From contig JAUXUD010000004.1 in NCBI GenBank assembly GCA_030680835.1, positions 32,400-96,399 on the forward strand: DNA of 64,000 nucleotides. Direction: 5' to 3'. This DNA comes from Bacteroidota bacterium. Lineage in GTDB: Bacteria > Bacteroidota > Bacteroidia > UKL13-3. How positions within the stretch are numbered: the first letter of the stretch is position 1; every line of letters starts with the position of its first letter. The position numbers and the translations under genes are program-made. The notes beneath the pieces are model-generated. The model did not search any database. It saw only the letters and a program-made list of their open reading frames with translations, and was not told the DNA's origin. Shown here piece after piece: positions 4,848 through 22,698 of this stretch.

Positions 4848-5587
4848 AGATTCATATTTGCTCCAATGTTTTTACCGCCATCCACATACATTACCTGTCC
4901 GGTAATAAATTTTGTTTTTTCATTTGCCAGAAAGGAAACCACATTGGCAACATCTTCAGGTTTACCAATGGTTTTTGTAGGCTGAGCCTGTATGAGTTTT
5001 GTTAGCACGGATGCTTCCAGATTTTGGGTAAGCGGGGTGTCAATCAATCCCGGAGCCACTGCATTTACCCATACATTGTATTTTCCCAATTCCAATGCCA
5101 GCACCCTTGTTAATGCAACCACACCGGCTTTTGATGCCGAATAATTGGATTGCCCCGCATTGCCCAACCAGGCTCTGGAAGCGATATTAATAATGCGTCC
5201 GGAATTTTGTTCTTTCATTACCCTTGCGGCTTCCCGGCACATCATCCAGGTTCCTCTTAAATTAACTGCTATCACCGCATCAAATTCTTCTACACTCATT
5301 TTCCAGATCATTTTGTCTTTGATAATACCTGCATTATTCACAACCACATCAATGGAACCATTTATTTTTTTTGCCGCTGCAAATAATTTCTGAACCGAAA
5401 TCTCATCATTAATATTGGCTTCAATATAATTACTGAAATCACTTCCCATTTCTTTCTCCAGGGCAATGCCGGCTTCTTTATCAACATCAACCAATACTAC
5501 AAAAAAGCCATCGGCCTTTAACTTTGTGGCAATGGATTTGCCAATGCCCTTAGCTGCACCCGTTACTATCGAAACTTGCTTCTTCAT
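4844..5587 (-). CDS. Short-chain dehydrogenase/reductase (FabG/BadH-like, possible hydroxyacyl-CoA dehydrogenase)
   Basis: TGAAKGIGKSIA Rossmann motif, NNAG, and S...Y..ASK catalytic triad region. 247 aa. Confidence 0.7.
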   Translation of the reverse strand: MKKQVSIVTGAAKGIGKSIATKLKADGFFVVLVDVDKEAGIALEKEMGSDFSNYIEANINDEISVQKLFAAAKKINGSIDVVVNNAGIIKDKMIWKMSVEEFDAVIAVNLRGTWMMCREAARVMKEQNSGRIINIASRAWLGNAGQSNYSASKAGVVALTRVLALELGKYNVWVNAVAPGLIDTPLTQNLEASVLTKLIQAQPTKTIGKPEDVANVVSFLANEKTKFITGQVMYVDGGKNIGANMNL

Positions 5588-6374
5588 ATGTTTCAGTTTT
5601 TACCTTTTGTATAATTTCTTTTTGATTTGATACCGCAACAATTTTTGCCACAATACCCAGTGCAATTTCTTCCGGTCCGTTTTGACCAATATCAAACCCC
5701 ATGGGCATATCAACCCGGTCCAATTGTTCTTTACTGCAAATATTGTGTTCAAGGAATCTTTTTTTTGTGATCAATATTTTCCGCATGCTGCCAATCATTC
5801 CCAGGTATGCGGTATTTTGATTGATGCAGTAGGCCAGAATTTCACGGTCGTATTCATGCTGGTGTGTGCAGATAATCACATAGGTATCCGAATCAAACAA
5901 AAGTTTGGAAAAAGCTTCTTTATGGTTCAGGGGAAATTTTTGAATATCGGGGACATCTGTTTTGTCAAGCATTTTGCTGCGCTCATCAATCAGGATGGTT
6001 TTAAATTGTAATTTTTGTGCGTAGAAGGCCACATGGCTTCCAATATGTCCTGAACCAAATACGATTAATTGTTTTTGTGGTTTTTGGGGTTCAATAAAAA
6101 TTTTCATGGTACCTCCACAGCACATATTTTGTTTGAGTAAGGCATAGTCTATTAATTTAGATTCATTTTGCAGAATGAGTTTAATGGCATCGGCGATAAC
6201 CTGCGATTCTACGTTTCCTCCGCCAATGGTACCTGCAGAATCGCCATTTGCCCAGATCAGCATTTTTGCACCTGCTTTCAAAGGTGTTGAACCCGATGTT
6301 TCAACAACCGTACAGAGTGCAAGCTGCTCTCTTTTTTCCAGTGCACATTGCAAAATATTAAACAGGGATTGCAT
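5550..6374 (-). CDS. xdhC: XdhC/CoxI family molybdenum cofactor insertion chaperone
   Basis: N-terminal XdhC_CoxI domain and a C-terminal Rossmann-like domain (LIVFGSGHIGSHVA). Sits next to Mo-enzyme genes. Confidence 0.7.
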   Translation of the reverse strand: MQSLFNILQCALEKREQLALCTVVETSGSTPLKAGAKMLIWANGDSAGTIGGGNVESQVIADAIKLILQNESKLIDYALLKQNMCCGGTMKIFIEPQKPQKQLIVFGSGHIGSHVAFYAQKLQFKTILIDERSKMLDKTDVPDIQKFPLNHKEAFSKLLFDSDTYVIICTHQHEYDREILAYCINQNTAYLGMIGSMRKILITKKRFLEHNICSKEQLDRVDMPMGFDIGQNGPEEIALGIVAKIVAVSNQKEIIQKVKTETYEEASFDSNGCS

Positions 6375-6972
6375 GGTTAAAATATTTTATATAATCTTCT
6401 TCCGTGTTAATATTTGCCAATAGCTTTTCATCGTCAACCGGCACTTCTTCAAAGGAAAACTTTTCAAGAATCACTCTCAGGTCTTCAGAATCCGATTTTA
6501 TTTCTTTGATATGCTGAAGTATTTCTTTTGAAAGTAAAACGGGATGCCCTTTCTTACCCAAATAAACCGGAACCACATATTTACCAGGTTCAATTTTAGC
6601 TTTCATTTGATTGAGTAAACCGGATGTTGTAAATGGATTATCGATATTCTGTATGAAGACTGGAAAAGAATTGTCAATATTGTTTAAGCCCAGTTTGATA
6701 CTGTAAAAGCGGTCGGATACCGGTCTGATATTGCAAACAATTTTTATACTGTTTGCATTAAGATTTTCATGAATTTGTTTTTTCAATTGTTTTATTAATT
6801 GTGAATGGGTAACCAGAACAATATTTTCAATGCCGGCCTGGGTATATTGATAAACGAGATTTTGTATAAAGTTAAATTCGGGATCAAAGGACAACCAGGC
6901 TTTAGGCTGACCCAGTCTTGCGGATTTTCCGGCCATTAAAATGATTGCGCTATATTTATTTTTTACATCCAT
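6358..6972 (-). CDS. mocA: MobA-like NTP transferase, probable molybdenum cofactor cytidylyltransferase (MocA)
   Basis: ILMAGKSARLGQPKAWL nucleotidyltransferase motif. The track ORF 6358..7146 has a hydrophobic N-terminal run that overlaps the upstream gene. The internal Met at 6972 (MDVKNKY) abuts the upstream stop at 6977. Confidence 0.55.
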   Translation of the reverse strand: MDVKNKYSAIILMAGKSARLGQPKAWLSFDPEFNFIQNLVYQYTQAGIENIVLVTHSQLIKQLKKQIHENLNANSIKIVCNIRPVSDRFYSIKLGLNNIDNSFPVFIQNIDNPFTTSGLLNQMKAKIEPGKYVVPVYLGKKGHPVLLSKEILQHIKEIKSDSEDLRVILEKFSFEEVPVDDEKLLANINTEEDYIKYFNHAIPV

Positions 6973-6976
6973 ATGA

Positions 6977-8017
6977 TCAGGTACCCTTATGAGTAAGCGC
7001 GCTGTTGTGCAAGTAGTGGTTGAGAAATAAAACAGAACCAAATAGCAGAAAAGCACCGGTTTGATGCAATATTCCGATAAAGATAGGAACGCCGTACAGG
7101 ATATTGAAAACACCCAGTAAAAATTGAACTCCATAAATGAAGCCAATAAATTTTATCAGATTTTGCAGGGTAGGCGTGAGGTTGTATTTTAAGGATTTAA
7201 AATAAACAAGTACTATAGGGATTAAGACAAGCCATGCCAGGGTTCTATGGATAAACTGAACACCTGCCTGCCCTTCAATAAAATTTTTCCAAACGGGTTT
7301 CAGCAGGGTTACTTCATTTGCTATCCAATTTTCATTCATTTTTGGAAATGCCGGAAACATATAACCGGCTTTTAGCCCTGCAACAAAAGCGCCATAAACT
7401 ATTTGTATGATAACCATTCCCAACAGGATGCGGCTTATATTTTTCATTGAGGAATAATTATCCAATTCTTTTTTAGGATAGAACAAATCCAATGCATACC
7501 AAAATGAAAATCCAAATGCAGCAAAGGCGGTCAACAAATGCAGGGCAAGGCGGTAATGACTTACATGCGGATTTTTTTGCAGACCGCTTTTTACCATAAA
7601 CCATCCGATGAATCCCTGGAGTGAACCGATCAGCAAAAGGATTAACATTTTTTTTATAAAGCCTTCCGGAAATTTTTTTCGAATGAGAAAAAATAAAAAG
7701 GGAATCAGAAAAACCACCCCGATAAACCTGCCGATAAAGCGGTGAATATACTCCCACCAAAAAATATTTTTATAATCCTGGAGGGTGAAATCTTTATTGA
7801 TAATTTTGAATTCCGGTGATTGCCGGTATTTATCAAACTGCAGCATCCATTCCTGTTCATTTGAGGGAGGCGTTGAACCCGTAATGTTCCATTCAACCAT
7901 CGACAATCCCGAATTTGTTAAACGCGTAATGCCCCCAACAACTACCATCACGTAAATTAATATACAACCGCTTAGCAGCCAGTATATAATTAATCTATTT
8001 GATTTTTGTGTCTGCAT
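6977..8017 (-). CDS. ctaA: Heme A synthase homolog (COX15/CtaA family, type 2 without the Cys pair), polytopic membrane protein
   Basis: 346 aa with about 8 TM segments. It carries the EYIHR and HxxLA..H motifs in each half that are typical of CtaA. Confidence 0.55.
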   Translation of the reverse strand: MQTQKSNRLIIYWLLSGCILIYVMVVVGGITRLTNSGLSMVEWNITGSTPPSNEQEWMLQFDKYRQSPEFKIINKDFTLQDYKNIFWWEYIHRFIGRFIGVVFLIPFLFFLIRKKFPEGFIKKMLILLLIGSLQGFIGWFMVKSGLQKNPHVSHYRLALHLLTAFAAFGFSFWYALDLFYPKKELDNYSSMKNISRILLGMVIIQIVYGAFVAGLKAGYMFPAFPKMNENWIANEVTLLKPVWKNFIEGQAGVQFIHRTLAWLVLIPIVLVYFKSLKYNLTPTLQNLIKFIGFIYGVQFLLGVFNILYGVPIFIGILHQTGAFLLFGSVLFLNHYLHNSALTHKGT

Positions 8018-8038: not shown

Positions 8039-10039
8039 TTATTCGCCTTTATATGCCACTTTTTGTCCTATAGAGGTTAATCCCAGCAAAGCGTCCTGTG
8101 TTTTGAAAATCTCCGGCAGATAAATCAATTCATCTGCGCAACCTTTTGCGTCTTCAATCAGTTTATCGGCAAAATGCAAAGCGATGGGTGCCTTAAACGA
8201 TAAAGTTTTACAAATGCGGTCTGCCTCTTCTTTTGAAATCATGGTGTCATGAACCTGATGGGTTAGCAATTCATTCAGGGTATGATCTTCAAAGAAATTT
8301 TTCACTGCAAGCCACTTATCACTCAGGATGGTTGCCGTTGGTGAAGGTAATGGTAAATTGCCGTACATGAAGCCGTACATTTCTTCCACGCTTATTACCT
8401 GATCAACCAGCCCTATTTCAAAAGCGTCTTTAGCACTCAACATTTTTCCTGTATGAATGAGGTATTTGCTCAAAGCTTTACCAATTCTTCGCGTGCTTCT
8501 TTGGGTTCCACCCAAACCCGGATAAATTCCAATACCGGTTTCAGGAAACGACATACTGGCACCCGGTAATGCAAGAATCAGATCTGCACATAATGCCAGT
8601 TCCAATCCTCCGCCCAGGGCAAGTCCATTCAATACCGCGATTACCTTTTTACTTGAATGGTCGATCAGTTCAAAAACCTCCTGTCCGAAACGGGTAAAAC
8701 GTTCTATATTTTCTATTGACCGGGCTTTCATGTTTTTTACAAAAAATTTTATATCAGCTCCGGCAACGAATGCTTTTCCTGAACCGCATAAAAAGATTTG
8801 TTCAATTTCCATGTCCATATTTGCCTTGCCGAATTTGTCGAGCAACTGATTCATCACATCTTCATTCAGGGCATTCAGGTCTTCGGGGCGTGACATGGTA
8901 ATGATGGCGTTTCTGCCCGATTTTTCATAAGTAACAAATTCCTGTTTCCAGAACGCCTTACCGATGGACAGAGGAATCAATGTATTGTACTTATGGGCTG
9001 TTTTTTCAATCAGTCTTCTGGTTTCCGGCTCTCCGTATTTGTTCATTAACTCAATCGGACCCGCTTTCCATTTCAAACCAATTCTTGCACCCCTGTTTAT
9101 ATCGGTGGCTGAACAAATTTTTTCGTCAAGTAACTGAGAACAAACTAAAAATTCAATCCCCAGCATTTGATCTGCAATTTCGTTTCTGATTTTTTCATCT
9201 GTTAAAATTTCACCTTCCAGATTCCAGGCTTGATTTATTTCTGTTTGGTCAATCAATTTTTCAGATGTTTTATACAGTTCGCCATAAACCTCAAGCGTTT
9301 TTTGAGAATGGCAGGCAATAGGAACACCGGTGGCATTCATCAGGGCGAAGGGACCCATACCGATTCCAAATTTTTCCATACATACCGCATCGATGGTTGG
9401 TATGTTTCCGATGTTTTCTTCCAGCAAACGGCAGGCTTCATTGAGCCAGGGAACAAAAAACCGGTTCACCACAAAGCCGTATGAATCCTTACAGTAAATG
9501 GCATCCTTCCCGGCTAAGAATGCAAATCTTTTTGCGGCATCAAATACCTGCGGCGAGGTTTTTAAATTGGGAATAATCTCAAGCAGGCGATTTTTAGCAG
9601 CATGATAGAAAAAATGCAGGCCAATAAAACGCTCTCGGTTTGTTACATATTCACTTAACTCATTCACCGAAAAAGATGACGTATTGGTAGCGATAATGCA
9701 GGTATCCGATACAACTTTCGACAGGTGTTTAAACAAGTGTATTTTCGCGTCAAAATCTTCAAAGATTGCCTCTATTACAAGATCGCAAATACTTAAATCT
9801 TCTATGTTAGCAGTGCCTGTAATATTTTTCAACGTATGGTTAACCTGGTCTTGTGTAAATACTTTTTTATCAAATCCTTCCTGTAAAGAATTTTTAATAT
9901 TGTTGATTCCTTTTTCTACAAAATCGATGGCACGATCGGCCAGGATTACTGTGAATCCTTCCTGTGCAAACTTTTGAGCCAGGGCTGAACCCATGGTTCC
10001 CGCTCCAATAATTCCAATAATTTTTATTGATCTGTTCAT
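8039..10039 (-). CDS. Bifunctional 3-hydroxyacyl-CoA dehydrogenase (N-terminal) / enoyl-CoA hydratase (C-terminal)
   Basis: N-terminus IGIIGAGTMGSALAQ (3HCDH NAD-binding). The C-terminal ~300 aa is a crotonase fold (GSGKAFVAGADI...GLALGGGLELAL). 666 aa. Confidence 0.75.
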   Translation of the reverse strand: MNRSIKIIGIIGAGTMGSALAQKFAQEGFTVILADRAIDFVEKGINNIKNSLQEGFDKKVFTQDQVNHTLKNITGTANIEDLSICDLVIEAIFEDFDAKIHLFKHLSKVVSDTCIIATNTSSFSVNELSEYVTNRERFIGLHFFYHAAKNRLLEIIPNLKTSPQVFDAAKRFAFLAGKDAIYCKDSYGFVVNRFFVPWLNEACRLLEENIGNIPTIDAVCMEKFGIGMGPFALMNATGVPIACHSQKTLEVYGELYKTSEKLIDQTEINQAWNLEGEILTDEKIRNEIADQMLGIEFLVCSQLLDEKICSATDINRGARIGLKWKAGPIELMNKYGEPETRRLIEKTAHKYNTLIPLSIGKAFWKQEFVTYEKSGRNAIITMSRPEDLNALNEDVMNQLLDKFGKANMDMEIEQIFLCGSGKAFVAGADIKFFVKNMKARSIENIERFTRFGQEVFELIDHSSKKVIAVLNGLALGGGLELALCADLILALPGASMSFPETGIGIYPGLGGTQRSTRRIGKALSKYLIHTGKMLSAKDAFEIGLVDQVISVEEMYGFMYGNLPLPSPTATILSDKWLAVKNFFEDHTLNELLTHQVHDTMISKEEADRICKTLSFKAPIALHFADKLIEDAKGCADELIYLPEIFKTQDALLGLTSIGQKVAYKGE

Positions 10040-10045: not shown

Positions 10046-10819
10046 TTAATTATTAGTCCACTGTGGTTTTCTTTTTTCCAGAAAGGATTGAATCCCTTCA
10101 TTTGCATCATGGGTTCCCATTAAATTGTTTACATAGAGTTGCTCCAGCTGCGGTAAAAAATTACTGAGGATATGATTGAATTTAATTCTAACGGCTTTAG
10201 TAGCGTACCTCAGTGAAGAAGCACTTTTCGGCAAAATGTTTTGTATGATCCATTCATTTACCCCTTGCTCCAATGCAGTTTTATCTTCATACAAATAATT
10301 GAGCAATCCTATGTTTTTAGCTTCTTCCGCACCGATTGTTTTTCCGGTTATAATTAATTCTTCGGCCCGGGCCAAACCAATTTTTTCGGGAAGCAGGATG
10401 GAAGCAGGCGGTGGAAAAACGCCCAGAATAATTTCGGGCTGACCTAATTTTGCTGTTTGATCGGCAAACATAAAGTCGCACATTAATGCGAGCTCCAGTC
10501 CACCACCCAGGCATTGGCCTGAAATTTTAGCCAGGGTGGGAATGGACAAATCGCGAAGGGTATAAAACAACTGATGAAAGGATCGAAGCATGGCAGCGGC
10601 CAGATCTTTCTGGTGCTCCTCTACGCTGGCTCCAAATGAAAAGTGTTTCCCTGCACCCTCAAAAATAATCAGTTTAAGATTGTTTGCTCCGCTAAAGGAA
10701 TACAATACTTTCTGCATTTCTTCCATCATCAAATGGTCGAGCACATTTCCCTTGCCATCATTTAGTAGAATGTGTGCAACCGATTGTTCGAATAAATAAG
10801 ATACTTGTATTTTTTCCAT
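10046..10819 (-). CDS. Enoyl-CoA hydratase/isomerase family protein (candidate dienoyl-CoA hydratase, Dch/BamR-like)
   Basis: 257 aa crotonase with AGKHFSFGASVEEH, GQCLGGGLELALMCD and FxxPE..LG motifs. Confidence 0.6.
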   Translation of the reverse strand: MEKIQVSYLFEQSVAHILLNDGKGNVLDHLMMEEMQKVLYSFSGANNLKLIIFEGAGKHFSFGASVEEHQKDLAAAMLRSFHQLFYTLRDLSIPTLAKISGQCLGGGLELALMCDFMFADQTAKLGQPEIILGVFPPPASILLPEKIGLARAEELIITGKTIGAEEAKNIGLLNYLYEDKTALEQGVNEWIIQNILPKSASSLRYATKAVRIKFNHILSNFLPQLEQLYVNNLMGTHDANEGIQSFLEKRKPQWTNN

Positions 10820-10821
10820 AA

Positions 10822-11922
10822 TTAAACTTTAGCAGTCTGGTATTGCGGTGAAATTTTATGGTGTAATTCTTCATTCCATTCATGACCTTCGGCCAGCAAC
10901 TGACGTAATAAAATAAAATCAACTTCACGGTTTTCTTTCGGACCTTCATTAAAAGCTTTGAACCCGGCTTTGGCTTCACTCATCATATTCAATGCCAGCC
11001 ATTCGCGGCTGCCTTCTTTATTTTTATCCCAGTGTTCCAGTTTAAATTTACGTACCTCACTAATGGTTTTACTCATGCAATTCGGAAAGGTATGCAGGAT
11101 TTTTGCAATCAAGTTATTTACCGATTTATCAAGCATGCTTAAATCGGTTTCAGCATGTGCAATCATTTCTTTTGCTTTTACAAGTGCCTCTCCGGTTTTC
11201 ATCGTTCCAAATGCAAATCTTCCAAATTCATCGGTTATTTTTTCGGTTTGAACCAAAGGATTTGCAATAAATTTTCCATCTACTTTCAGCACGGGAGCGA
11301 TATCTGTAATTACTCCAAAATAATAAGCCTGATGAGCTGTCCAGGGTTCACATAAGGTTAACGACATCATGGCCCGTTCTACACCAACATAGAGTGGAAG
11401 AAAGTCAGTAGCACCACCAATTGCCGCACTGCCATGCTTCGGACCTGCTTGTCCGAACCGTGCCATGTCACTGGCAATGCTAAAATCGCATGCCATTCCG
11501 ATTTCCTGGCCACCGCCGATTCTCATTCCGTTTACCCTGCAGATAACAGGTTTTTCACACATCAGAATGTTAGAAACCATATCGTTAAACAATCTCATGT
11601 ATTGCGAATATTCCTGAGGATTGCCAGAATAATATTCGGCGTATTCCTTGGTATTCCCACCGGTGCAAAAGGCTTTGTCGCCAACGGCTGTGAGCACTAC
11701 AGCCACAATGCTTCTGTCGTTTGATGCTTCCCTGAAAGCCAGGATGATTTCCTTAATGGCTGCTGTGGTATATGAATTAAATTGTTTGGGATTATTCAAG
11801 ATAATCCATGCATTGAATAATTTATCAACGGGCGTTCCATCCTTATCCAGGCATGGGCGTTTTTCGAAAAGAATCTCTTTGAAATCGATGTCAACAAGAT
11901 TGTGATTTTTTAATTCAGTCAT
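10822..11922 (-). CDS. Long crotonase-family protein with ~100 aa C-terminal extension (candidate ring-opening 6-oxocyclohex-1-ene-1-carbonyl-CoA hydrolase, Oah/BamA-like)
   Basis: 366 aa. Crotonase core (AFCTGGN..., VNGMRIGGGQEIGMACDFSIA) plus a C-terminal extension. The length and architecture match BamA/Oah rather than MenB or BadI (~260-285 aa). Confidence 0.45.
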   Translation of the reverse strand: MTELKNHNLVDIDFKEILFEKRPCLDKDGTPVDKLFNAWIILNNPKQFNSYTTAAIKEIILAFREASNDRSIVAVVLTAVGDKAFCTGGNTKEYAEYYSGNPQEYSQYMRLFNDMVSNILMCEKPVICRVNGMRIGGGQEIGMACDFSIASDMARFGQAGPKHGSAAIGGATDFLPLYVGVERAMMSLTLCEPWTAHQAYYFGVITDIAPVLKVDGKFIANPLVQTEKITDEFGRFAFGTMKTGEALVKAKEMIAHAETDLSMLDKSVNNLIAKILHTFPNCMSKTISEVRKFKLEHWDKNKEGSREWLALNMMSEAKAGFKAFNEGPKENREVDFILLRQLLAEGHEWNEELHHKISPQYQTAKV

Positions 11923-11930
11923 ATGTATAA

Positions 11931-12995
11931 TTATTTAAAGTCGGGTGTTAAAACAGAACGTTTGGTATATTTATGTTCGAGTGTATTATTAAAAACTTCA
12001 TTGATTTGAGACATGGGAAAAGTTTCAACAAACTGACCAATTTTCAGTTTATCATCCGCAACGAGTGCAACCACTTCCGGATATAATTCGGGTTTGCATC
12101 CCCAGGTTCCGATGAGCTTGGCATCAAAAGCCATCAGGTTGCTTAAACGCACTTCAACTTTATCCATAGTAAAACCAACGATAGACAGGGTAGAGGCAAA
12201 AGTTACCAGATTAAATGCGAGCTCCTGACCCGGTTTTGATCCGGATATTTCAAATATTTTCCATCCATATTTTGGGGCTTTCAGTTCTTTTGCAATTTCT
12301 TTTACTTTCTCTTTGATGGTTTTTAAATCAAGACCTTTGGTATTTAATGTCGCATCTACGCCATTCAGTTTGGCAATGGCTAATTTCTCATCACTGATAT
12401 CCAGTGCCAAAACTTTTGCACCAAATATTTTGGCAATTTGTGCCCCGTAAATACCCACGCCGCCTACACCAATTACAATTGCAAAATCTCCTGCCACCAG
12501 TTCCGATTTTTTAACAACCTGGTATGGAGTTGAAATCGCATCAGCGATAACAGAGAGTTGTTCCAATGAATATTTTTCTAAAACTTTATCGGGTACCTCA
12601 CATAAATATTTGGAAGGTACTTTTATATGAGAAGCAAATCCTCCGTCAAAATCATTACCAGGCATCAGTTGATTTCTGCATATATTGCTCCGGTCGCTTT
12701 TGCATAAATCACATTCACCACAAGGCAATACCGCGGGTATAATTACATTTTTTCCGATCCATTTTTCATCCCCATCAACCACGGTTCCGCTTATTTCATG
12801 CCCGAGTGTTAAAGGCAATGCATGTTTGGTTTGAACCCCATGATGCCAGAAACTAATGTCGGTATGACAAACTCCGCAGCCGGCAATTTTTACCAGGGTT
12901 TCACCCTCTTTCAATTCCGGCATATCACTTTCTGATAAAACAAATGGCTTATTTAATTCAGTCATTTGCCATTGGTACATTTTATTTTCTTCCAT
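11931..12995 (-). CDS. Zinc-dependent medium-chain alcohol dehydrogenase family (candidate 6-hydroxycyclohex-1-ene-1-carbonyl-CoA dehydrogenase, Had/BamQ-like)
   Basis: GCGVCHTDISFWHHG...GHEISGTV zinc-ADH signature, a structural-Zn Cys cluster (CGECDLC) and GVGGVG Rossmann motif. 354 aa. Confidence 0.6.
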   Translation of the reverse strand: MEENKMYQWQMTELNKPFVLSESDMPELKEGETLVKIAGCGVCHTDISFWHHGVQTKHALPLTLGHEISGTVVDGDEKWIGKNVIIPAVLPCGECDLCKSDRSNICRNQLMPGNDFDGGFASHIKVPSKYLCEVPDKVLEKYSLEQLSVIADAISTPYQVVKKSELVAGDFAIVIGVGGVGIYGAQIAKIFGAKVLALDISDEKLAIAKLNGVDATLNTKGLDLKTIKEKVKEIAKELKAPKYGWKIFEISGSKPGQELAFNLVTFASTLSIVGFTMDKVEVRLSNLMAFDAKLIGTWGCKPELYPEVVALVADDKLKIGQFVETFPMSQINEVFNNTLEHKYTKRSVLTPDFK

Positions 12996-14261
12996 TTATT
13001 TCATATTTATATTTTCAAATAATATTGCAGTTCCTTGTCCGCCCCCAATGCAGGCAGATGCAATTCCGTATTTAACATTTCTCAGATTCATTTCGCGGAT
13101 CATGGTTAATGAAAGTCTTAAACCGGAAGCTGCCAGCGGATGTCCGATTGCAATGGCTCCTCCATTTACATTTAGTTTTTCTCTATCAAGACCCAGTTCA
13201 ATTTCACAACCGATCAGTTGTGCTGAGAAGGCTTCGTTAATTTCAAACAAGCCGATATCTTCAATGTTTAATCCTGTAAATTCAAGCAGTAATTTAATTG
13301 CAGGCACCGGAGCCAGTCCCATTAATTTAGGGTCAATGCCACAGGTAGCTGCTGCAACAATTTTTGCAATGGGTTTTAAACCTTTTGCCTGAACCGTACT
13401 TAAATCGGCCACCACTGCAGCCCCGGAACCATCAACAATACCACTGCAATTGCCCGCAGTTAAAACACCTACTTCCGAAAATACGGTTTGTAATTTAGCC
13501 AGTGATTCAAGGCTGGTATCGCGTATTTGTTCATCAACCCTAAAATCTTTAACAGCTCCCGGCAAGCGAACTTTTCTTGATTTCAATCCTTCTCTTTCGA
13601 AAACTGTAGAATTAATAGGTGTAATTTCATCTTTAAAAATTTCATTTTTTTGCGCATTGAATGCTCTTTGAAATGAAAGATAAGCGAATGCATCACATTG
13701 CTCGCGTGTAATCTGATGTTTTTTGGCAACGTTTTCAGCAGTGAATCCCATGGGATAACCTGCTGCGGTATCATCCAATGCCTCCCATAACATATCTTTA
13801 AACACAGGTCTTCCCAAAGGGTATCCCATGCGGTTTCCAAAACTTACCGTAGGTGCCAGCGACATGTTTTCGGTACCACAACATAAAACCAGTGCGGCTT
13901 TTTTTAAGGTAATTTGTTCTGCTGCCGTAATCAGGGTTTCAAAACCGGAGGCACAAATACGCTGAACCATTAATGAGGGAACTGTAATGGGCAGGCCGGC
14001 ATACAGTGCGATATGTCTCGGTAGAAAATAGGCGTCGCCGGAGGCCTGACCAATATTGGCTATAATGGCCTGATCAATATCATCCGGTTCAACACCCGAT
14101 TTAAGCAATGCAGCTTTTGAAGCGAATATCCCCAGATCAGTCGGTGATACATTAGCAAGGGTTCCGCAAAATTTTCCAAAAGGAGTGCGGATGCCATTCA
14201 CTAAAAAAATATCATCAAATGAGATGGCGATACCTTTTTCTTTATTGTGATAAGATTTCAT
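12996..14261 (-). CDS. Acetyl-CoA C-acyltransferase / beta-ketothiolase
   Basis: 421 aa. Thiolase active-site regions (VQRICASGFETL, NVNGGAIAIGHPLAASG, GIASACIGGGQG). Confidence 0.8.
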   Translation of the reverse strand: MKSYHNKEKGIAISFDDIFLVNGIRTPFGKFCGTLANVSPTDLGIFASKAALLKSGVEPDDIDQAIIANIGQASGDAYFLPRHIALYAGLPITVPSLMVQRICASGFETLITAAEQITLKKAALVLCCGTENMSLAPTVSFGNRMGYPLGRPVFKDMLWEALDDTAAGYPMGFTAENVAKKHQITREQCDAFAYLSFQRAFNAQKNEIFKDEITPINSTVFEREGLKSRKVRLPGAVKDFRVDEQIRDTSLESLAKLQTVFSEVGVLTAGNCSGIVDGSGAAVVADLSTVQAKGLKPIAKIVAAATCGIDPKLMGLAPVPAIKLLLEFTGLNIEDIGLFEINEAFSAQLIGCEIELGLDREKLNVNGGAIAIGHPLAASGLRLSLTMIREMNLRNVKYGIASACIGGGQGTAILFENINMK

Positions 14262-14263
14262 AA

Positions 14264-16111
14264 TTAATTGGATATAGATTCTGAAGTAACTAATTCTTTA
14301 ATGTTGTTTACAAGCCAGTTTTCTTTAGCCAATGTGGCGGCACCATAAGCAACCACAAACTGGGGATTGTCAACGGGATTGATTTCTTTATTAAATTTCT
14401 CACTTAAAATATTACTGATGTATGGATGATGCGCAACCACGCCCCCTATCAGGTAGGTGGGGATATTCGGAAACAGTTTCATTTTAGCAACTTTATTGGC
14501 AATGGAAATATAAATGCCTCTTGCGATATCCTGTTTCAGCATCCCATCAAATACCCATGTCATAATTTCTGTTTTTGCAAACACCGTACAAAAACTATTG
14601 AGCTCTTTATTGTATGAAGAGTGTGCAGCGAGACTGCTCATTTCTTCGATATTGATTTCGGCACGTTCCGAAATTTCCTCAAGGAAAGAGCCCGTTCCGG
14701 CGGCACATTTATCATTCATATAGAAATTGGCAACAAGGTTTTCATTGTTGGTATGAATGATCTTGATGTCCTCACCCCCGATATCAATAATGTTTTTTTC
14801 ACCGGGATAAAACGCTGCCACACCTGAGGCTGCGCAGTTTATTTCTGTTTTAATAATATCGGTTTCGTTAAAATGTTTTCTACCGTAACCGGTTGCACAA
14901 CTGTGTTTAATTAAAAATGCAGCATAGATTGACTTAAGCACATTTTTCATGGCATGCCTGTCTTTATTCATGGTAGGCAGTATATACCTGAACACCGGAG
15001 TGCCGTTCCCGTCAATAACAACAAATTTTGTAAATGCTGATCCCAGATCGATACCGAGGAACCCATTATGCTCTTTATAATAAATGGATGAACGGTTTTT
15101 TTCAAGCAAACCTTTATTGATAATTTTTTTATTCAGTTCATCTTCTACCCCCGGAAACCGGTTCAGTACATTTTTATTGGTCATGGCTTTCACCATATTT
15201 GTAAATGCCAGGTTAAGCGAAGTTTTTACGTAATGTTTTTTCCCGTATTCAACTATTTTCCCATTAAAATAATCTATTTCGGTTGGTCTGTTATTGATCA
15301 GGTCAACAGATAATGAAGGGAAGTGGTCACCTCCTTTTTTCAGGTATTGCATGCATTTTCTTACAAAATCATCCGAAAAGCGAATTTTCTCTTTTTCGGC
15401 AACATCAATGCCTTCGTTAATGATTTGTTCAATCAGTTCTACGGTGTCATCATCAGCCATTGCTTCAGCCATGGTTAGCCTGCCAACTCCGCATAGAGCA
15501 CTCAGTGAGGCATTCAAAATGGTTTTTTCCCAGATCCCTTTAACCAGTTCAAACGAATCCAGTTTATTTGTTTTGAAACCAATGCTGTTTAAGGTATCGG
15601 CCAATAGTTGCGCTTCTTTGGTTCTGTTGTCATCAATTGAACCTACATAATTTGGCGGAGTTACGAAAGATACGCGCACAATATTCGGGGCGCGCATGTT
15701 ACCTGCAAAATTAATAATCATGCGCAATGTTTTTGATTCACCAAACGTTGCGCTGATTAAACTTTCAACATCTATTCCGTTTTGTGCAGAAACCAAAGTA
15801 AGCTTATCTGTATTAATTTGTTCCGCTTCTTTAACAGCTCCAATTGTCTGATAGGATTTTAAAGAGAAGATGAGATAATCAAGATCCTGTGCTCTCATAT
15901 CAACAATCGAATCATATACATTGTCGAAACGGGTGGTTGATACCAAGGCGTTCTCAAGAATAATTCCGTCTTCTCTTACTTTTTTGAGTTTAAAATCATC
16001 TTTGTCGCAGATTGAAACATCGCAACCGGCCTCTTTAAATTTAACAGCGAGAATCATCCCCACAGGACCTAAACCTACAATTCCAACCTTAATTTTTTTT
16101 GTTTTTTCCAT
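14264..16111 (-). CDS. Fusion protein: ketopantoate reductase-like (ApbA/PanE family NAD(P)H oxidoreductase) N-terminal half plus BadF/BadG/BcrA/BcrD-type ATPase (CoA-substrate-specific enzyme activase) C-terminal half
   Basis: N-terminus KIKVGIVGLGPVGMILAVKF Rossmann motif plus an ApbA C-domain. The C-terminal ~270 aa is GIDLGSAFTKFVVID...NDKCAAGTGSFLE (ASKHA ATPase with the cluster-ligand Cys pair). 615 aa. Confidence 0.65.
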   Translation of the reverse strand: MEKTKKIKVGIVGLGPVGMILAVKFKEAGCDVSICDKDDFKLKKVREDGIILENALVSTTRFDNVYDSIVDMRAQDLDYLIFSLKSYQTIGAVKEAEQINTDKLTLVSAQNGIDVESLISATFGESKTLRMIINFAGNMRAPNIVRVSFVTPPNYVGSIDDNRTKEAQLLADTLNSIGFKTNKLDSFELVKGIWEKTILNASLSALCGVGRLTMAEAMADDDTVELIEQIINEGIDVAEKEKIRFSDDFVRKCMQYLKKGGDHFPSLSVDLINNRPTEIDYFNGKIVEYGKKHYVKTSLNLAFTNMVKAMTNKNVLNRFPGVEDELNKKIINKGLLEKNRSSIYYKEHNGFLGIDLGSAFTKFVVIDGNGTPVFRYILPTMNKDRHAMKNVLKSIYAAFLIKHSCATGYGRKHFNETDIIKTEINCAASGVAAFYPGEKNIIDIGGEDIKIIHTNNENLVANFYMNDKCAAGTGSFLEEISERAEINIEEMSSLAAHSSYNKELNSFCTVFAKTEIMTWVFDGMLKQDIARGIYISIANKVAKMKLFPNIPTYLIGGVVAHHPYISNILSEKFNKEINPVDNPQFVVAYGAATLAKENWLVNNIKELVTSESISN

Positions 16112-16160
16112 CAGTTTAATTTTTTGTGTTGAATATCCGATATCCTATTGCTTAAGTATT

Positions 16161-16625
16161 CTACAATGCCTGGATATAATAAATTTCCTCCTCTTTTGAT
16201 TCAAAACCGGTATTGATATTCTGAATGGCCTCCCTGATTATTTTACTCATATTTTCAGAAGAAGGATTTGTATCAATGGAGCTCAGATCGGTATTAATGA
16301 TAATGGAGGCGTTAATTTTTTCTGATGCCGGGTCCAGCTTTGTGTTTACAATTTTTAAGCATCCGGTGAGGCATCTTCCCAGTTCATCCAGGTTACGCGG
16401 ACAAAAACAACCTTCATCCGGAGATAATTTATATTCAGGATTATCCAATAATTTTTTATCCGGAAAAATCAGCGCAATATGATTTTCCCTGCCAGCATCA
16501 CTTAAGGAAACAAACTTTACATAGTGACAGGTATTCTTAATTAATTTTTCAATTTCCAGGGAACTAACTTTTTCTCCGGTTGAAAGTTTAAATACCTGGC
16601 TAAACTGTAAATGATGCATGTTCAT
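16161..16625 (-). CDS. Small protein resembling the C-terminal subdomain of AMP-forming long-chain acyl-CoA ligases; possible gene remnant
   Basis: FKLSTGEKVSSLEIEKLIKN...HIALIFPD resembles the FKLxxGEYxxxExIE...VVPD block at the C-terminus of ACSL/FAA-type ligases. Only 154 aa, with no adenylation domain upstream. Confidence 0.35.
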   Translation of the reverse strand: MNMHHLQFSQVFKLSTGEKVSSLEIEKLIKNTCHYVKFVSLSDAGRENHIALIFPDKKLLDNPEYKLSPDEGCFCPRNLDELGRCLTGCLKIVNTKLDPASEKINASIIINTDLSSIDTNPSSENMSKIIREAIQNINTGFESKEEEIYYIQAL

Positions 16626-16653
16626 AATTACCTGATTTTAGAGGTGAGAAATA

Positions 16654-17874
16654 CTAATGACTATAAACTCCTGAGCTTTCTATTTGCTCGATAAATGTCT
16701 CAATTTTGGTGATACTTTGTCCTTCCGAATAAAAACGCAAATCACATAAATCGCCTTCAATCACCATGGTTGGAATACCCAGGGTTTCCTGGATACGCTG
16801 CGGCATGCCAAACCTCGAATTTGAATTATTTGCACAGGTTTTTGCATCATGAAAAATCATGCCATCGATGCGAAAATCATGCACCAGTTGTGTGAGTATG
16901 GATTGTTTGGCTTCTTCACTTCTGTTAATAAATATTTCGGTATATGCCTGAGCCGATGATTCAAAAGGATTTCTTTCATCGAAAGCATCAAACACCCAGC
17001 TATTACAGTAGGTTGAAGCCACAACAGCTGAGTTGTTATTGATAAATAAATCCGACAATGATCTTAATTTCCCCCAGATGGGCATACCATCCCAGTATAT
17101 TCTTGATTTTTCTTTTTCTAAAAATCCGATTCCTTTTTCTACATTTTCAGTTAATTCTTTTAGTAATGTGATGTAATAGTCTTTGGCAATTTGGGTGCCT
17201 CTTAAAACCACAATCGGACCCATATGTATGGTTGCATCGAAAAAGCTTATTGGAGCCGGACTTTTCGTTGCGGTCCACAAAACCTGTTTCCATAAATCGG
17301 TTGCTTCCTTGCTTAATTTAAGTACTTCCCTGAAACGGTCAATGTCAAATTTTAAGCCGCTCACTTTCTCGCATAATGGAATCAGTGCTTTAAATTGTGC
17401 GGATACATCTTCAATTTCTTCTTTGGTTACTTCGGTAACATGCCGTGGCGGGTTAATTCCAAAAACAGGGCAATTTAATTCTCTTGCAAAATAGCTGAAC
17501 CAATCCTGTACTTCACGGCATTGGTTAGTATTGTAAACAATAATATCGGGTTTAGGCGGACCATTTAATCCATAATGTTCTTTTAAGGGAGTTTGACCGG
17601 TCAGGTATGAGCCGATATCAGCAGTTAAATACGAACAGATATCATTCGAATAACCCAGAATTGCAGATTCAGGAATCAAGTCGTTGGCAGTTCGGGTAGC
17701 TCCCAGTAAAGCTCCATGATTTTCGGGGAAATGTACTTCAAACCCAAATGAACGCAAGAGTTCAGCCGGACCCACACTGGTGCACCAGGCTATTTTTTTT
17801 GAAGGTTCTTTCATACCCAGGAAATAATTTCCCATTATTTCCTTCATTAATTTACTTGTTTGAATTTTATACAT
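16654..17874 (-). CDS. 2-hydroxyacyl-CoA dehydratase / benzoyl-CoA reductase subunit-like protein (HgdB/BcrB/BadD/YjiM family), unpaired
   Basis: 406 aa. N-terminal block IAWCTSVGPAELLRSFGFEVHFPENH... and C-terminal Cys positions are typical of the family. There is no partner A-type subunit adjacent. Confidence 0.6.
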   Translation of the reverse strand: MYKIQTSKLMKEIMGNYFLGMKEPSKKIAWCTSVGPAELLRSFGFEVHFPENHGALLGATRTANDLIPESAILGYSNDICSYLTADIGSYLTGQTPLKEHYGLNGPPKPDIIVYNTNQCREVQDWFSYFARELNCPVFGINPPRHVTEVTKEEIEDVSAQFKALIPLCEKVSGLKFDIDRFREVLKLSKEATDLWKQVLWTATKSPAPISFFDATIHMGPIVVLRGTQIAKDYYITLLKELTENVEKGIGFLEKEKSRIYWDGMPIWGKLRSLSDLFINNNSAVVASTYCNSWVFDAFDERNPFESSAQAYTEIFINRSEEAKQSILTQLVHDFRIDGMIFHDAKTCANNSNSRFGMPQRIQETLGIPTMVIEGDLCDLRFYSEGQSITKIETFIEQIESSGVYSH

Positions 17875-17905: not shown

Positions 17906-20035
17906 CTATATTTTTATCCTTGCATCCACGGCAAAAGCGCCATCTTCAAATGCCATCACCGGATTTAAATCCATTTCCTTTATTTGAGGAAAATCATTCA
18001 CCAGTTGAGATATGCGAAGTATCATTTCAATAACACTGTGTTTATCTAGCGCCGCTTCCCCTCTTGCGCCATCTAATAATTTTGCAGCTTTTATTGAAGA
18101 TAACATTTCGTTTGCTTCAACCCGCGTTACCGGAGATAATTTGAAAACCACATCTTTTAATACTTCAATATAAATTCCTCCCATACCAAACATTACAAGC
18201 GGTTCCAGATCTTTTTGAGCACTTACTCCAATAACAAGTTCCTTACCACCGGGAAGAAATTTTTGAACCAAAAACCGGAGGTCCTCCTCTATAAAATCTT
18301 CCTTCATTTTTTCAACGGCATACAAAACTTCATTGTCGTTTTTCAGATTTATGGCTACCCCGCCCAAATCGCTTTTATGCACAAGAGATTTCGATTCAAC
18401 TTTTACAACAACGGGATATCCAATTTCTTTCGCAGCTTTTACAACATCTGCCATAGAGTGGGCCAAACGCCAATCGGCAATGGGAATTCCATAAGCTGAA
18501 AGTAAGGTATATACTTGTTCGCTGCTAAGAAATTCTCCGGTAGATTTTACATTATTTAAAATGGAATCGGCTTTTACTTTATCTATATCATTAAAATGTT
18601 TGGGTTCACCAATATGCCGGTTTTGAACCAAATGGTACCTGTATAATGCGCCAAGCGCTTTGGCAGCAGTGGTAGGGAAGCTGTAACAAGGTACACCGCC
18701 ATCTTTCAGGATTTTGGCAGTCTCCTGAAAACGTTCCAGACTCAGGTTGGTCATGAAATTACAAACGATGGGTTTTTTGTGTTGTTGATTTACTTCAACA
18801 ATACTTCTTGCAACCTCATTGGTGTCGGTAAACGGAGCCGTAACAAAATTGATAAAAACCGAGTCAATCTGTTCTTCATTCATCATCACATCCAGCGCAC
18901 TTCTGAAATGAATTCCGCCTCCGGTTGCAACTACATCAACAGGATTTCCAATGCTTGCTTCGGGCAATAATGTTTGTTGTAAGGTTTGTATTGCTTTTTC
19001 AGAAAGAGCCGGAATCTGCATTCCTGCATGAACCAGTTCATCGGTTGCAATTACAGCAGGTCCGCCTGTATTGGTGATGATGCCCACACGGTTTCCCTTA
19101 GGGATGGGTTGTGTTGAAAAAGCTTTGGCAGCCTGACACATTTCTTCTTCATTGGTGAAAGAAAGGATCCCTGTTTTCTCAAAAATTAATTCAGTTGCAA
19201 TATCAACACCAGCAAGAGAACCTGTATGGGAAGCTGCTGCTTTAGCGCCTTCAGCAGTCCTGCCCGATTTCATGGCAAGTATTGGCTTTTTGCGTGCAAC
19301 CACTTTGGCCACTTTCATAAATTCTCCGGGATCATGAAATCCTTCGGTATAAAGTATAATGGCTTTGGTTGCCTCATCGTTACCATAATAATTTAATACC
19401 TCCGAAATAGAAATATCACATGCATTTCCATTTGAAGCATAGTAACGCATTCCAATTTCCAGGTCGAATAAACTTTGCATGATAAAGGCACCTACACCTC
19501 CACTTAAAGCTACAATTGAGATGGCACCAGGCTCCGGAAAAGTAAATGTAAAATCACAGTATGCTTTATAATCCGGATCGGTATTGATGATACCCTGACA
19601 GTTTGGACCAAATACCCGGATTCCATATTCTTTTGCCTTGTTGAGAAAAGCAGTTTGCAATGCAATGCCTTCTTCCCCCATTTCATTAAATCCGGCTGAA
19701 TTAATGATTACTGATTTAATTCCTTTTTTGCCACAATCTTCAATAATCTGAGGAACAAATTTTGAAGGAATAATGATATGTGCCAAATCAATATCATCAG
19801 GCACATCAAAAATAGTTTGATAGGCCTTGATATCCCTTATGCTGGGTTCTTTAGGATTGATGGGATAAATTTTCCCGGTATAACCATAATGTACCAGGTT
19901 TTTAATAATTACATTTCCGATGGATAATTCTTTTGAGGATGCACCAATTATAGCAATCGATTTTGGCTTAAATAAAGTATCCAGTTCGTGAGAAATGTCA
20001 CTTTCAATCAATACTGATTCTTCCTTATAATTCAT
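17906..20035 (-). CDS. Acyl-CoA synthetase (NDP/ADP-forming), fused alpha+beta domains (CoA-binding, CoA-ligase, ATP-grasp)
   Basis: 709 aa. N-terminal CoA-binding Rossmann region (SIAIIGASSKELSIGNVIIKNL), a succinyl-CoA-synthetase-like flavodoxin domain and a C-terminal ATP-grasp domain. Confidence 0.75.
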   Translation of the reverse strand: MNYKEESVLIESDISHELDTLFKPKSIAIIGASSKELSIGNVIIKNLVHYGYTGKIYPINPKEPSIRDIKAYQTIFDVPDDIDLAHIIIPSKFVPQIIEDCGKKGIKSVIINSAGFNEMGEEGIALQTAFLNKAKEYGIRVFGPNCQGIINTDPDYKAYCDFTFTFPEPGAISIVALSGGVGAFIMQSLFDLEIGMRYYASNGNACDISISEVLNYYGNDEATKAIILYTEGFHDPGEFMKVAKVVARKKPILAMKSGRTAEGAKAAASHTGSLAGVDIATELIFEKTGILSFTNEEEMCQAAKAFSTQPIPKGNRVGIITNTGGPAVIATDELVHAGMQIPALSEKAIQTLQQTLLPEASIGNPVDVVATGGGIHFRSALDVMMNEEQIDSVFINFVTAPFTDTNEVARSIVEVNQQHKKPIVCNFMTNLSLERFQETAKILKDGGVPCYSFPTTAAKALGALYRYHLVQNRHIGEPKHFNDIDKVKADSILNNVKSTGEFLSSEQVYTLLSAYGIPIADWRLAHSMADVVKAAKEIGYPVVVKVESKSLVHKSDLGGVAINLKNDNEVLYAVEKMKEDFIEEDLRFLVQKFLPGGKELVIGVSAQKDLEPLVMFGMGGIYIEVLKDVVFKLSPVTRVEANEMLSSIKAAKLLDGARGEAALDKHSVIEMILRISQLVNDFPQIKEMDLNPVMAFEDGAFAVDARIKI

Positions 20036-20184: not shown

Positions 20185-21021
20185 TTACACCATCACTGCC
20201 TGTTTTTCTTTCAGTCTGATATGCCTGAATCCTCCCCATAAGGCTGCGCCCAATGCACCTGCGTATATGGCATCCGGGTGGGTTTTAATCACATATTTTT
20301 TCCCGGTTTCCAACAATTGTTCTTCTATTGCCTGGATCATTCCGGTATTCAGCGACATGCCTCCTGTTATGATAATCGGTGATTCCGCCTTTAAGGAACT
20401 CAGCAGTTTTATAATCCGGTTTGCAATGGAAAGATGAATGCCTTTGATAATATTGGGAGTTTTGATACCTCTTGAAACCATGTTAATCACATCGGTTTCA
20501 GCCAGTACTGCGCAAATTCCTGATGACAATTCAGGGGCTTCTGCCTGCAACGAAACGGTTCCTACTTCTTCAATCGACAGTCCAAGATAACGCGAAATAT
20601 TTTCAACAAATTGTCCGGATCCCGAAGCACATTGTCCGGTCATTTTATAATCCTGCACGCGTGCATCTGTTGATATTTTGATGGCCCGTACGTACAAAGC
20701 ACCCATATCCACTACTGTTACGGCATCCGGGAAGAAAAAATTGGCCCCTTTTGCATGGGTTGTCATCCCATAAAAATGTCCGCGTTTGCGCTTCACCAGA
20801 TCGCCTTCACCGGTTGATGCCAGATAAGCAATTTCTTCATATTGAAGATTGTTTCTTTTCAGCATGCTTTGAATTAATTCTTCTGCAACCACTGAAGGAT
20901 TCCGCTTTCTGATTTTTTCAGTATGCTTGTCAACGATCTTCGGATTGTTGGAATAATCTACCAAAATAAGTTTGATAAAATTTGATCCCACATCAATCCC
21001 CATTGTATAAAAGTTTTCCAT
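20185..21021 (-). CDS. bcrD: Benzoyl-CoA reductase-like small ATPase subunit (BcrD/BadG family activase-type ASKHA ATPase)
   Basis: 278 aa. MGIDVGSNFIKLILVD... and TGQCASGSGQFVE (Cys pair for the bridging [4Fe-4S] cluster). Fourth gene of the C-B-A-D order. Confidence 0.65.
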   Translation of the reverse strand: MENFYTMGIDVGSNFIKLILVDYSNNPKIVDKHTEKIRKRNPSVVAEELIQSMLKRNNLQYEEIAYLASTGEGDLVKRKRGHFYGMTTHAKGANFFFPDAVTVVDMGALYVRAIKISTDARVQDYKMTGQCASGSGQFVENISRYLGLSIEEVGTVSLQAEAPELSSGICAVLAETDVINMVSRGIKTPNIIKGIHLSIANRIIKLLSSLKAESPIIITGGMSLNTGMIQAIEEQLLETGKKYVIKTHPDAIYAGALGAALWGGFRHIRLKEKQAVMV

Positions 21022-21103
21022 AATTTTTTAATTCTTACTTCTTAATTCTATTTCATATTGTACATTGTTCTCGACTTAGCTCGGACTGACATGCGGTATA
21101 TCT

Positions 21104-21166
21104 TACATTGTACATTGTACATCGTAATTCGTACATCGTACATCGTAAATCGTACATTGTACATCA
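21104..21166. repeat. Tandem array of 9 copies of the 7-bp unit TACATYG (TACATTG/TACATCG/TAAATCG/TAATTCG), with an additional solo copy at 21061
   Basis: Read directly: tacattg tacattg tacatcg taattcg tacatcg tacatcg taaatcg tacattg tacatca. The array runs into the bcrA-like stop codon. Confidence 0.8.
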
Positions 21167-22665: not shown

Positions 22666-22698
22666 CTACCAGTTGTATCATATAAATTAGTTTTCATG

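Follow-up and report, generated by a model that had tools for sequence, protein, structure and literature searches.

A probable Thauera-type had-oah-dch gene trio of the anaerobic benzoyl-CoA pathway in a Bacteroidota metagenome-assembled genome

Three adjacent genes in a 64,000-nt stretch of the Bacteroidota bacterium contig JAUXUD010000004.1 (hereafter the window) very probably represent the Thauera-type had, oah and dch of the anaerobic benzoyl-CoA pathway, whose products would hydrate, oxidize and open the reduced ring. Exactly three open reading frames (ORFs), of 257, 366 and 354 aa, occupy this part of the window, all on the minus strand:

10046..10819, minus strand: dch-like, crotonase of 257 aa, probable cyclohexa-1,5-diene-1-carbonyl-CoA hydratase of the Fibrobacteres-Chlorobi-Bacteroidetes (FCB) clade (TIGR03189 as best family, synteny, sequence block)
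10822..11922, minus strand: oah, crotonase of 366 aa (TIGR03200, invariant residues, NCBI MDP1725263.1)
11931..12995, minus strand: had, 6-hydroxycyclohex-1-ene-1-carbonyl-CoA dehydrogenase, Zn-dependent alcohol dehydrogenase (ADH) of the medium-chain dehydrogenase/reductase (MDR) type, 354 aa (TIGR03201, 7QUY, NCBI MDP1725264.1)

The gaps inside the trio are 2 and 8 bp, a thiolase gene adjoins had upstream (0-bp gap), and a FadB-like gene follows the dch-like gene after 6 bp. Pfam placed ECH_1 in both crotonases and ADH_N plus ADH_zinc_N in the 354-aa protein. The initial annotation, made from the sequence alone, had described the 257-aa crotonase, the Zn-ADH and the 366-aa crotonase as lying side by side, and the ORFs, the domains and an FSFGASVEEH block were all found. 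Its listing as ring hydration, oxidation and hydrolysis named the right genes but had to be corrected in order, since transcription runs from had through oah to the dch-like gene. The curated equivalog cut-offs of NCBIfam served as thresholds. The E-values of the hidden Markov model (HMM) matches (2.8e-66 for the 257-aa, 1.4e-175 for the 366-aa and 4.5e-140 for the 354-aa protein) put a chance assignment out of question. Only one dch/had/oah set is present in the 64-kb window. Because the source metagenome-assembled genome (MAG) is public and its NCBI record for this contig already carries the names Oah (MDP1725263.1) and Had (MDP1725264.1), the trio is an ordinary addition to a known pathway.

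Oah scored 583.6 bits against TIGR03200 (cut-off 464.45), with residues 4-355 matching profile positions 1-357 of 360. The initial annotation had placed the protein by its size class with BamA/Oah and not with MenB or BadI, and had named alignment with MenB-type or generic hydratases, together with a lack of BamA-specific residues, as what would contradict this. The scores agree with its placement: the BadI model (TIGR03210) gave 122.9 bits (cut-off 467.6) and the MenB models TIGR01929 and NF005637 gave 110.8 (342.7) and 119.2 (380), all matches being confined to residues 38-217 of the crotonase core. ECH_1 spans only residues 40-219 of 366, and therefore the long C-terminal extension of about 150 aa is real; residues 220-366 showed a mean column identity of 0.64 in 70 orthologues. 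When 71 Oah orthologues were aligned, including proteobacterial genes from had-oah-dch-bcrCBAD clusters, the motifs Q-[YF]-NSYTT, GGGQEIGM and FGQAGPKHGS were invariant except for the Y/F variation at position 48. E140 in GGGQEIGM, as well as H163 and S165 in FGQAGPKHGS, were the same in all 71, and these three residues are predicted to have catalytic roles. E140 takes the position of the first catalytic Glu of enoyl-CoA hydratases, which MenB lacks, and the position of the essential Asp163 of MenB is Ala or Pro in Oah orthologues and Ala in the window Oah. The Oah of Thauera aromatica is bifunctional, hydrating the double bond and then cleaving the ring hydrolytically to 3-hydroxypimelyl-CoA, and the retention of E140 plus the invariant FGQAGPKHGS fits this reaction (PMC5742626). 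The window protein is about 65% identical to betaproteobacterial orthologues and is genomically linked to had, dch and benzoyl-CoA reductase. The nearest solved structure for its core is E. coli MenB (4ELS, 106.7 bits, residues 38-215); to our knowledge, no structure of an Oah exists.

A Rhodopseudomonas-type BadK/BadH/BadI route, or a MenB-type naphthoate synthase as the identity of the 366-aa protein, would explain why BadI and MenB are its next best families and provide the closest solved structures for its core. BadI of R. palustris also opens a ring hydrolytically, that of 2-oxo-cyclohexane-carboxyl-CoA, as in the second half-reaction of Oah, and MenB shares the GPK-GS loop with Oah. However, BadI has about 260 aa and neither a hydratase step nor the C-terminal extension, and MenB is without the hydratase Glu and the roughly 150 extra C-terminal residues. 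Moreover, the dehydrogenase of the trio is a Zn-dependent MDR orthologous to Had and not a short-chain dehydrogenase/reductase (SDR) like BadH, and no menaquinone-pathway genes were found nearby. The HMM scores far under the cut-offs, the replaced Asp163 and the invariant E140 rule out MenB and BadI as identities of the protein, and the scores effectively refute the whole alternative, whose probability is negligible. The Thauera/Geobacter route of Dch, Had and Oah, which the initial annotation had preferred to the Rhodopseudomonas one, is upheld, since Oah and Had pass their equivalogs and Dch is the best family of the third protein.

The identification of the 354-aa protein as BamQ/Had was likewise borne out by alignment. 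Had scored 466.7 bits against TIGR03201 (cut-off 338.65), and its best solved relatives were PDB 7QUY and 7QUL (369 bits; 49% identity to 7QUY), which according to the depositors' paper are Had of T. aromatica K172, here ThaADH (PMC9400901). The zinc and substrate first-shell residues listed in that paper were mapped onto the alignment, and 17 of the 19 were identical in the window protein. The catalytic zinc ligands C42/H65/E66/D156 of ThaADH correspond to C43, H66, E67 and D152, all kept, the proton-relay residue T44 to T45, and the structural-zinc cysteines C94/C97/C100/C108 to C92, C95, C98 and C106. In the substrate first shell, 8 of 10 residues were identical, the changes being T159 to S155 and N301 to T297. 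The acidic residue of the ALD/AID motif that follows the GVGGVG loop is shared with ThaADH, which suggests a preference for NAD+.

For the 257-aa protein, the best family was Dch (TIGR03189, 223.4 bits), more than 70 bits above the next (150.4 bits). T. aromatica Oah and Dch, as well as BamA and BamR of Geobacter and Syntrophus, were represented by proteobacterial orthologues from had-oah-dch-bcrCBAD loci. Two Dch stand-ins among them scored 366.2 and 380.1 bits on TIGR03189 and are thus bona fide Dch, as both exceed the cut-off of 292.5. In the reverse search, four Dch proteins that pass TIGR03189 matched only positions 10049-10810 of the window (E 1e-33 to 1e-47). The block HFSFGASVEEH is identical in the 257-aa protein and the passing proteobacterial controls; EchA8 carries FAAGADIKEM at this place. 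GASVEEH had initially been called non-canonical, but the Dch orthologues examined keep it, and so do the proteobacterial ones among them that pass TIGR03189. We therefore rejected it as an oddity of this protein and regard it as a Dch family signature in those orthologues. Both crotonase catalytic glutamates align with those of EchA8, one in GGGLELA and the other in GQPEI.

The neighbourhood of oah was compared by fetching 80 genomic loci with Oah relatives and mapping the operon genes of the window onto them (some counts below use 83 loci). Among the 80, the order had-oah-dch was kept in about 60 FCB loci and 17 others. Directly after oah, about 60 loci from Bacteroidota, Ignavibacteria, Marinimicrobia/Fidelibacterota and Zixibacteria have a short-crotonase homologue that is 52-75% identical to the window protein, and about 17 proteobacterial and other loci have a 39-44% identical homologue in the same slot, followed by bcrCBAD. 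Given this gene order, the reciprocal matches and the shared HFSFGASVEEH block, the 257-aa crotonase is most plausibly the Dch orthologue within a diverged Bacteroidota/FCB clade that lies beyond the reach of the curated model.

The trio lies within a run of 20 co-directional minus-strand genes from 25257 down to 594, packed tightly with bcrCBAD in one operon. In the direction of transcription, the order is bcrC, bcrB, bcrA, bcrD, an ADP-forming acyl-CoA synthetase, a HadB-like subunit, a 154-aa ORF, a 615-aa fusion, the thiolase and the trio; then come the FadB-like gene, heme A synthase, MocA-like, XdhC, an SDR, a molybdenum enzyme (gamma-alpha and beta) and a hemerythrin gene. The main features around the trio are:

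20185..25257, minus strand: bcrC-bcrB-bcrA-bcrD, probable class I ATP-dependent Thauera-type benzoyl-CoA reductase (TIGR02263, TIGR02260, TIGR02259, TIGR02261)
17906..20035, minus strand: ADP-forming (NDP-forming) acyl-CoA synthetase, 709 aa, candidate aromatic-acid activating enzyme (NCBIfam ADP-forming ligase models at 500-578 bits, under their cut-offs)
14264..17874, minus strand: accessory module (HadB-like 16654-17874; 154-aa ORF 16161-16625; fusion 14264-16111)
12996..14261, minus strand: thiolase, probable 3-oxopimelyl-CoA thiolase (TIGR01930, 391.8 bits, cut-off 240.55)
8039..10039, minus strand: FadB-like 3-hydroxyacyl-CoA dehydrogenase plus enoyl-CoA hydratase, probable 3-hydroxypimelyl-CoA dehydrogenase (Pfam 3HCDH_N, 3HCDH, ECH_1)
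1147..7146, minus strand: 4-hydroxybenzoyl-CoA-reductase-like molybdenum enzyme with SDR, XdhC and MocA-like maturation genes (TIGR03194 and TIGR03195 as best families)

The shared orientation and the gaps of 0-8 bp around the trio suggest that the 20 genes are co-transcribed. A sigma-70 promoter and terminator scan of 7000-26400 was uninformative, giving 47 promoter-like hits (61 expected) and 19 terminator-like hits (17 expected); Bacteroidota promoters fall outside its model. BcrC (460.2 bits, cut-off 421.15) and BcrB (700.1 bits, cut-off 486.55) both pass, and by its family matches the neighbouring reductase is most likely of the ATP-dependent class I Thauera type, not of the Geobacter BamB type.

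The trio would catalyze the 'modified beta-oxidation' part of the Thauera/Geobacter-type pathway. The substrates of its enzymes are predicted from their sequences, and with the pathway chemistry of PMC5742626 and PMC3794298 the following course is proposed. BcrCBAD would make cyclohexa-1,5-diene-1-carbonyl-CoA, which Dch would hydrate to 6-hydroxycyclohex-1-ene-1-carbonyl-CoA, and Had would oxidize the 6-hydroxyl with NAD+ to the 6-oxo compound. Oah/BamA would then hydrate the remaining double bond, probably via the crotonase glutamate E140, and, in an active site resembling those of BadI and MenB, hydrolyze the C1-C6 bond to give the open-chain 3-hydroxypimelyl-CoA. The FadB-like dehydrogenase and the thiolase would carry this product on to glutaryl-CoA and acetyl-CoA.

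Several results weigh against this assignment. The 257-aa protein stays below the TIGR03189 cut-off (223.4 vs 292.5 bits), as do three other members of the FCB clade (219.3-234.1 bits), it is only about 40% identical to proteobacterial Dch, and its NCBI name is just 'enoyl-CoA hydratase-related protein'. BcrA (439.6 bits, cut-off 578) and BcrD (301.9 bits, cut-off 312.85) match their own families best but fall under the cut-offs. The operon of the window contains no gene for ferredoxin or 2-oxoglutarate:ferredoxin oxidoreductase (KGOR), and related loci have one. AlphaFold2, run on an alignment of 30 Oah sequences with 80-92% identity, gave a model with a mean predicted local distance difference test (pLDDT) score of 57.5 and with the catalytic region (residues 130-194) below 50, a quality too low for reading the active site or searching for folds. 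Furthermore, neither a Bacteroidota isolate nor an enzyme of this clade was found in the literature searched. The initial annotation of the 257-aa crotonase as Dch/BamR thus stands on best family, synteny and reciprocal matches but not on the curated cut-off.

The low TIGR03189 score leaves some room for another reading, in which the 257-aa crotonase serves the lower pathway as an ordinary short-chain hydratase, for example of crotonyl-CoA or glutaconyl-CoA. Oah and Had would then be genuine, and another protein would hydrate the dienoyl-CoA. The generic NCBI name, the many generic hydratase matches at 100-150 bits and the retention of both canonical catalytic glutamates are in line with this. 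However, the Dch model is ahead by more than 70 bits, and proteobacterial had-oah-dch-bcrCBAD clusters have their dch in this very slot, directly after oah. The HFSFGASVEEH block is that of bona fide Dch and unlike the GADIKE-type block of EchA8, bona fide Dch proteins match this ORF alone in the window, and the FadB-like gene already supplies a hydratase domain for the lower pathway. We consider an ordinary hydratase improbable and keep the Dch assignment.

The trio might also be a paralogous set for a substituted ring, that is, for a dienoyl-CoA derived from hydroxy-, methyl- or halo-benzoyl-CoA rather than from benzoyl-CoA. Paralogous dch/had/oah sets for 4-methylbenzoate have reportedly been described in Magnetospirillum pMbN1. 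The same operon also encodes a molybdenum enzyme resembling 4-hydroxybenzoyl-CoA reductase as well as an unexplained dehydratase-like module, and the T. aromatica enzymes are promiscuous (PMC5742626). However, the window holds one set only, which adjoins a BcrCBAD whose B and C subunits pass their equivalogs; a 4-hydroxybenzoyl-CoA reductase would deliver plain benzoyl-CoA, and the substrate pocket of Had hardly differs from that of the T. aromatica enzyme. A role restricted to substituted rings is therefore very improbable, and benzoyl-CoA remains the preferred origin of the substrate.

Among known systems, T. aromatica is close in all three enzyme families, in the had-oah-dch order of Thauera-type proteobacterial loci and in the linked BcrCBAD, here probably of class I. 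It differs in that the host here belongs to Bacteroidota, the window having a G+C content of about 39%, and in the low identity of Dch and the lack of ferredoxin and KGOR genes noted above. In Thauera-type proteobacterial loci, bcrCBAD lies downstream of the trio, whereas here it lies upstream and is separated by the ligase, the dehydratase-like module and the thiolase. BamR, BamQ and BamA of Geobacter metallireducens and Syntrophus aciditrophicus belong to the same families and catalyze the same reactions, and the peptides targeted by primers for bamA, a functional marker, are kept in the window. These obligate anaerobes use the ATP-independent class II reductase BamB-I, unlike the probable class I reductase of the window, and the SP9F primer site is a poor match at the DNA level.

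Usual benzoate-CoA ligases are AMP-forming, and for this reason the 709-aa ADP-forming synthetase may represent an unusual route of aromatic-acid activation. An AMP-forming ligase takes its slot in the related loci L001, L081 and L083. The FadB-like gene follows dch in most FCB loci. In nine Bacteroidota-type loci, dch is followed by a pair of genes for a 2-oxoacid:ferredoxin oxidoreductase resembling pyruvate:ferredoxin oxidoreductase (POR) or KGOR (L083 18877-21732; also L055, L056, L023, L038 and L015), and weaker homologues (27-35% identical) precede had in proteobacterial loci. Such a pair fits an electron-donor system for a class I benzoyl-CoA reductase.

The molybdenum enzyme has a fused gamma-alpha subunit of 923 aa (2076-4847; TIGR03194 803 bits, below the cut-off of 994.55) and a beta subunit (1147-2079; TIGR03195 202 bits, below the cut-off of 404.55). 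In the latter, a Cys-rich insertion (CENRC...CLKCDGEVC...C) is similar to the additional Fe-S loop found in HcrB. Loci L002, L004 and L005 share the synteny of the molybdenum-enzyme block. The SDR at 4844-5587 had initially been thought possibly BadH-like. This role was dropped because its 25 best NCBIfam families, FabG-type and other SDRs, included no model for BadH, and because the gene accompanies the molybdenum-enzyme genes in related loci. A heme A synthase gene (CtaA/COX15; 6977-8017, minus strand) lies between the FadB-like and MocA-like genes, an oxygen-respiration gene inside the operon of an oxygen-sensitive reductase. It does not occupy that position in L002, L004 or L005, and a homologue was seen only in L019. 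The last gene of the operon (594-1139, minus strand) encodes a hemerythrin-domain protein, which recurs in or beside the clusters of L015, L018, L025 and L083 (14025-14438 in L083) and may serve the oxygen-sensitive pathway as a partner that binds or senses oxygen.

The accessory module begins with a 406-aa HgdB/HadB-like subunit of the 2-hydroxyacyl-CoA dehydratase family (16654-17874), which is single, without a second subunit; it matched 3O3M chain A with 171 bits and the 3-methylbenzoyl-CoA reductase subunit MbdO with 132 bits. In the 615-aa fusion (14264-16111), a ketopantoate-reductase-like (ApbA/PanE) domain is combined with an activating ATPase of the BcrAD/HgdC type. At E <= 1e-10, 1150 proteins matched the fusion, the best 120 of which all have both domains; public records mostly call such proteins '2-dehydropantoate 2-reductase', the name that NCBI also gives to the fusion of the window. 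In most Bacteroidota-type loci, the HadB-like subunit and the fusion are kept between bcrD and the thiolase. The 154-aa ORF (16161-16625, minus strand; 'hypothetical protein') is 40% identical to the C-terminal domain of an AMP-forming acyl-CoA ligase of 581-585 aa, which fills its slot in L001 (2906-4651), L004, L005, L081 and L083. An intact 154-aa ORF, 44% identical, is also present in L002, and the ORF is either a ligase relic or a stand-alone domain. In a Maribacter-labelled MAG (L081, 10382-11398), a class I/II aminotransferase gene lies between the fusion and the thiolase, and another is at 7139-8155 of L082. Its homologues occur in 7 of 83 loci, and its presence in the cluster hints at amino acids feeding the pathway.

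The fused 2-oxoacid reductase-activator, standing beside a ligase, beta-oxidation enzymes, a 4-hydroxybenzoyl-CoA-reductase-like enzyme and benzoyl-CoA reductase, suggests a wider role for the trio, as the end of an undescribed Bacteroidota/FCB route from phenylpyruvate or 4-hydroxyphenylpyruvate through aryl-lactyl-CoA and cinnamoyl-CoA to benzoyl-CoA. Aromatic 2-oxo acids derived from Phe or Tyr would be reduced to aryl-lactates by the ketopantoate-reductase-like domain and activated by the adjacent CoA ligase. The single-subunit HadB-like radical dehydratase, its activator ATPase fused to the reductase domain, would then dehydrate the aryl-lactyl-CoA. Chain shortening by the FadB-like enzyme and the thiolase would lead to benzoyl-CoA or 4-hydroxybenzoyl-CoA, and the molybdenum enzyme would dehydroxylate the latter before ring reduction and ring opening. 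The missing second dehydratase subunit counts against this route, and a literature search for a path from aryl-lactate to benzoyl-CoA yielded a single paper, which was unrelated. We regard it as unlikely, and as a tentative extension of the benzoyl-CoA pathway assigned above.

Elsewhere, the window carries genes that bear on the nature of the host. The presence of heme A synthase and cytochrome c genes, and of an operon for heme biosynthesis with an oxygen-independent HemN-type enzyme, fits a facultative anaerobe, and such aerobic-respiration genes match the usual link of class I reductases with facultative anaerobes. The heme operon (plus strand, 48306-56896) encodes glutamyl-tRNA reductase, porphobilinogen deaminase, uroporphyrinogen decarboxylase, 5-aminolevulinate (ALA) dehydratase, a class III aminotransferase (probably HemL), a radical-SAM HemN-like protein and ferrochelatase; the cytochrome c gene is at 42879-43334. 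Four proteins with the C-terminal sorting domain of type IX secretion (41059-41832, 45037-46515, 57586-58944 and 59060-62569) mark the organism as a member of Bacteroidota or a close relative. Divergent from bcrC, a Cus-like heavy-metal efflux set (plus strand, 25975-33371) comprises an HMA-domain protein, a 1290-aa resistance-nodulation-division (RND) pump, an outer-membrane factor and a membrane-fusion protein with a heavy-metal-binding domain, and is followed by a P-type ATPase at 37325-39976.

All 80 best loci come from MAGs or assemblies of uncultured organisms. Oah homologues of 81-92% identity are abundant in MAGs of Bacteroidota, Chitinophagaceae and Saprospirales, and the best matches at species level, with 85-86% identity, came from two MAGs, one of bog Bacteroidetes and one of Chitinophagales. 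Complete benzoyl-CoA pathways of class I are common among uncultured Bacteroidota and their relatives, which account for at least about 60 species-level genomes within the best 80 Oah matches. The literature searched, on Bacteroidota, Chitinophagaceae, Saprospiraceae and Ignavibacteria, gave no pathway description for Bacteroidota proper and did not treat these phyla as degraders of aromatics under anoxia. Closest to such a description was a 2024 paper that reported the pathway in MAGs of Krumholzibacteriota, of the same superphylum, and called the potential rare (PMC10936416).

The sites of the bamA primers SP9F and ASP1R, whose sequences and peptide sites were taken from PMC3794298, were located in silico, a check that the initial annotation had proposed:

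11763..11784, minus strand: SP9F site (peptide QFNSYTT), gene positions 139-160, 6/22 mismatches
11493..11510, minus strand: ASP1R site (peptide GQEIGM), gene positions 413-430, 1/18 mismatches

Both peptides are conserved, but the DNA sites are poorly matched, and one of the SP9F mismatches adjoins its 3' end. The predicted amplicon is 292 bp. Across the 80 loci, Bacteroidota-type genes showed a median of 4 mismatches to the forward and 2 to the reverse primer, compared with 1 and 0 in other lineages. Since the primer sites are mismatched at the DNA level although membership at the protein level is clear, PCR surveys with the bamA primers probably under-sample, and so under-count, the Bacteroidota-type clade.

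For textbook enzymology, the trio alone teaches little; its value lies in the host lineage, the primer mismatch, the Dch clade and the accessory module. Because the Dch clade scores below the curated model and bears a generic public name, automated pathway reconstructions would call the pathway incomplete. Facultatively aerobic Bacteroidota may form a large group of organisms that degrade aromatic rings anaerobically and are systematically under-detected in surveys with bamA primers, a possibility that we rank as more likely than the aryl-lactate route.

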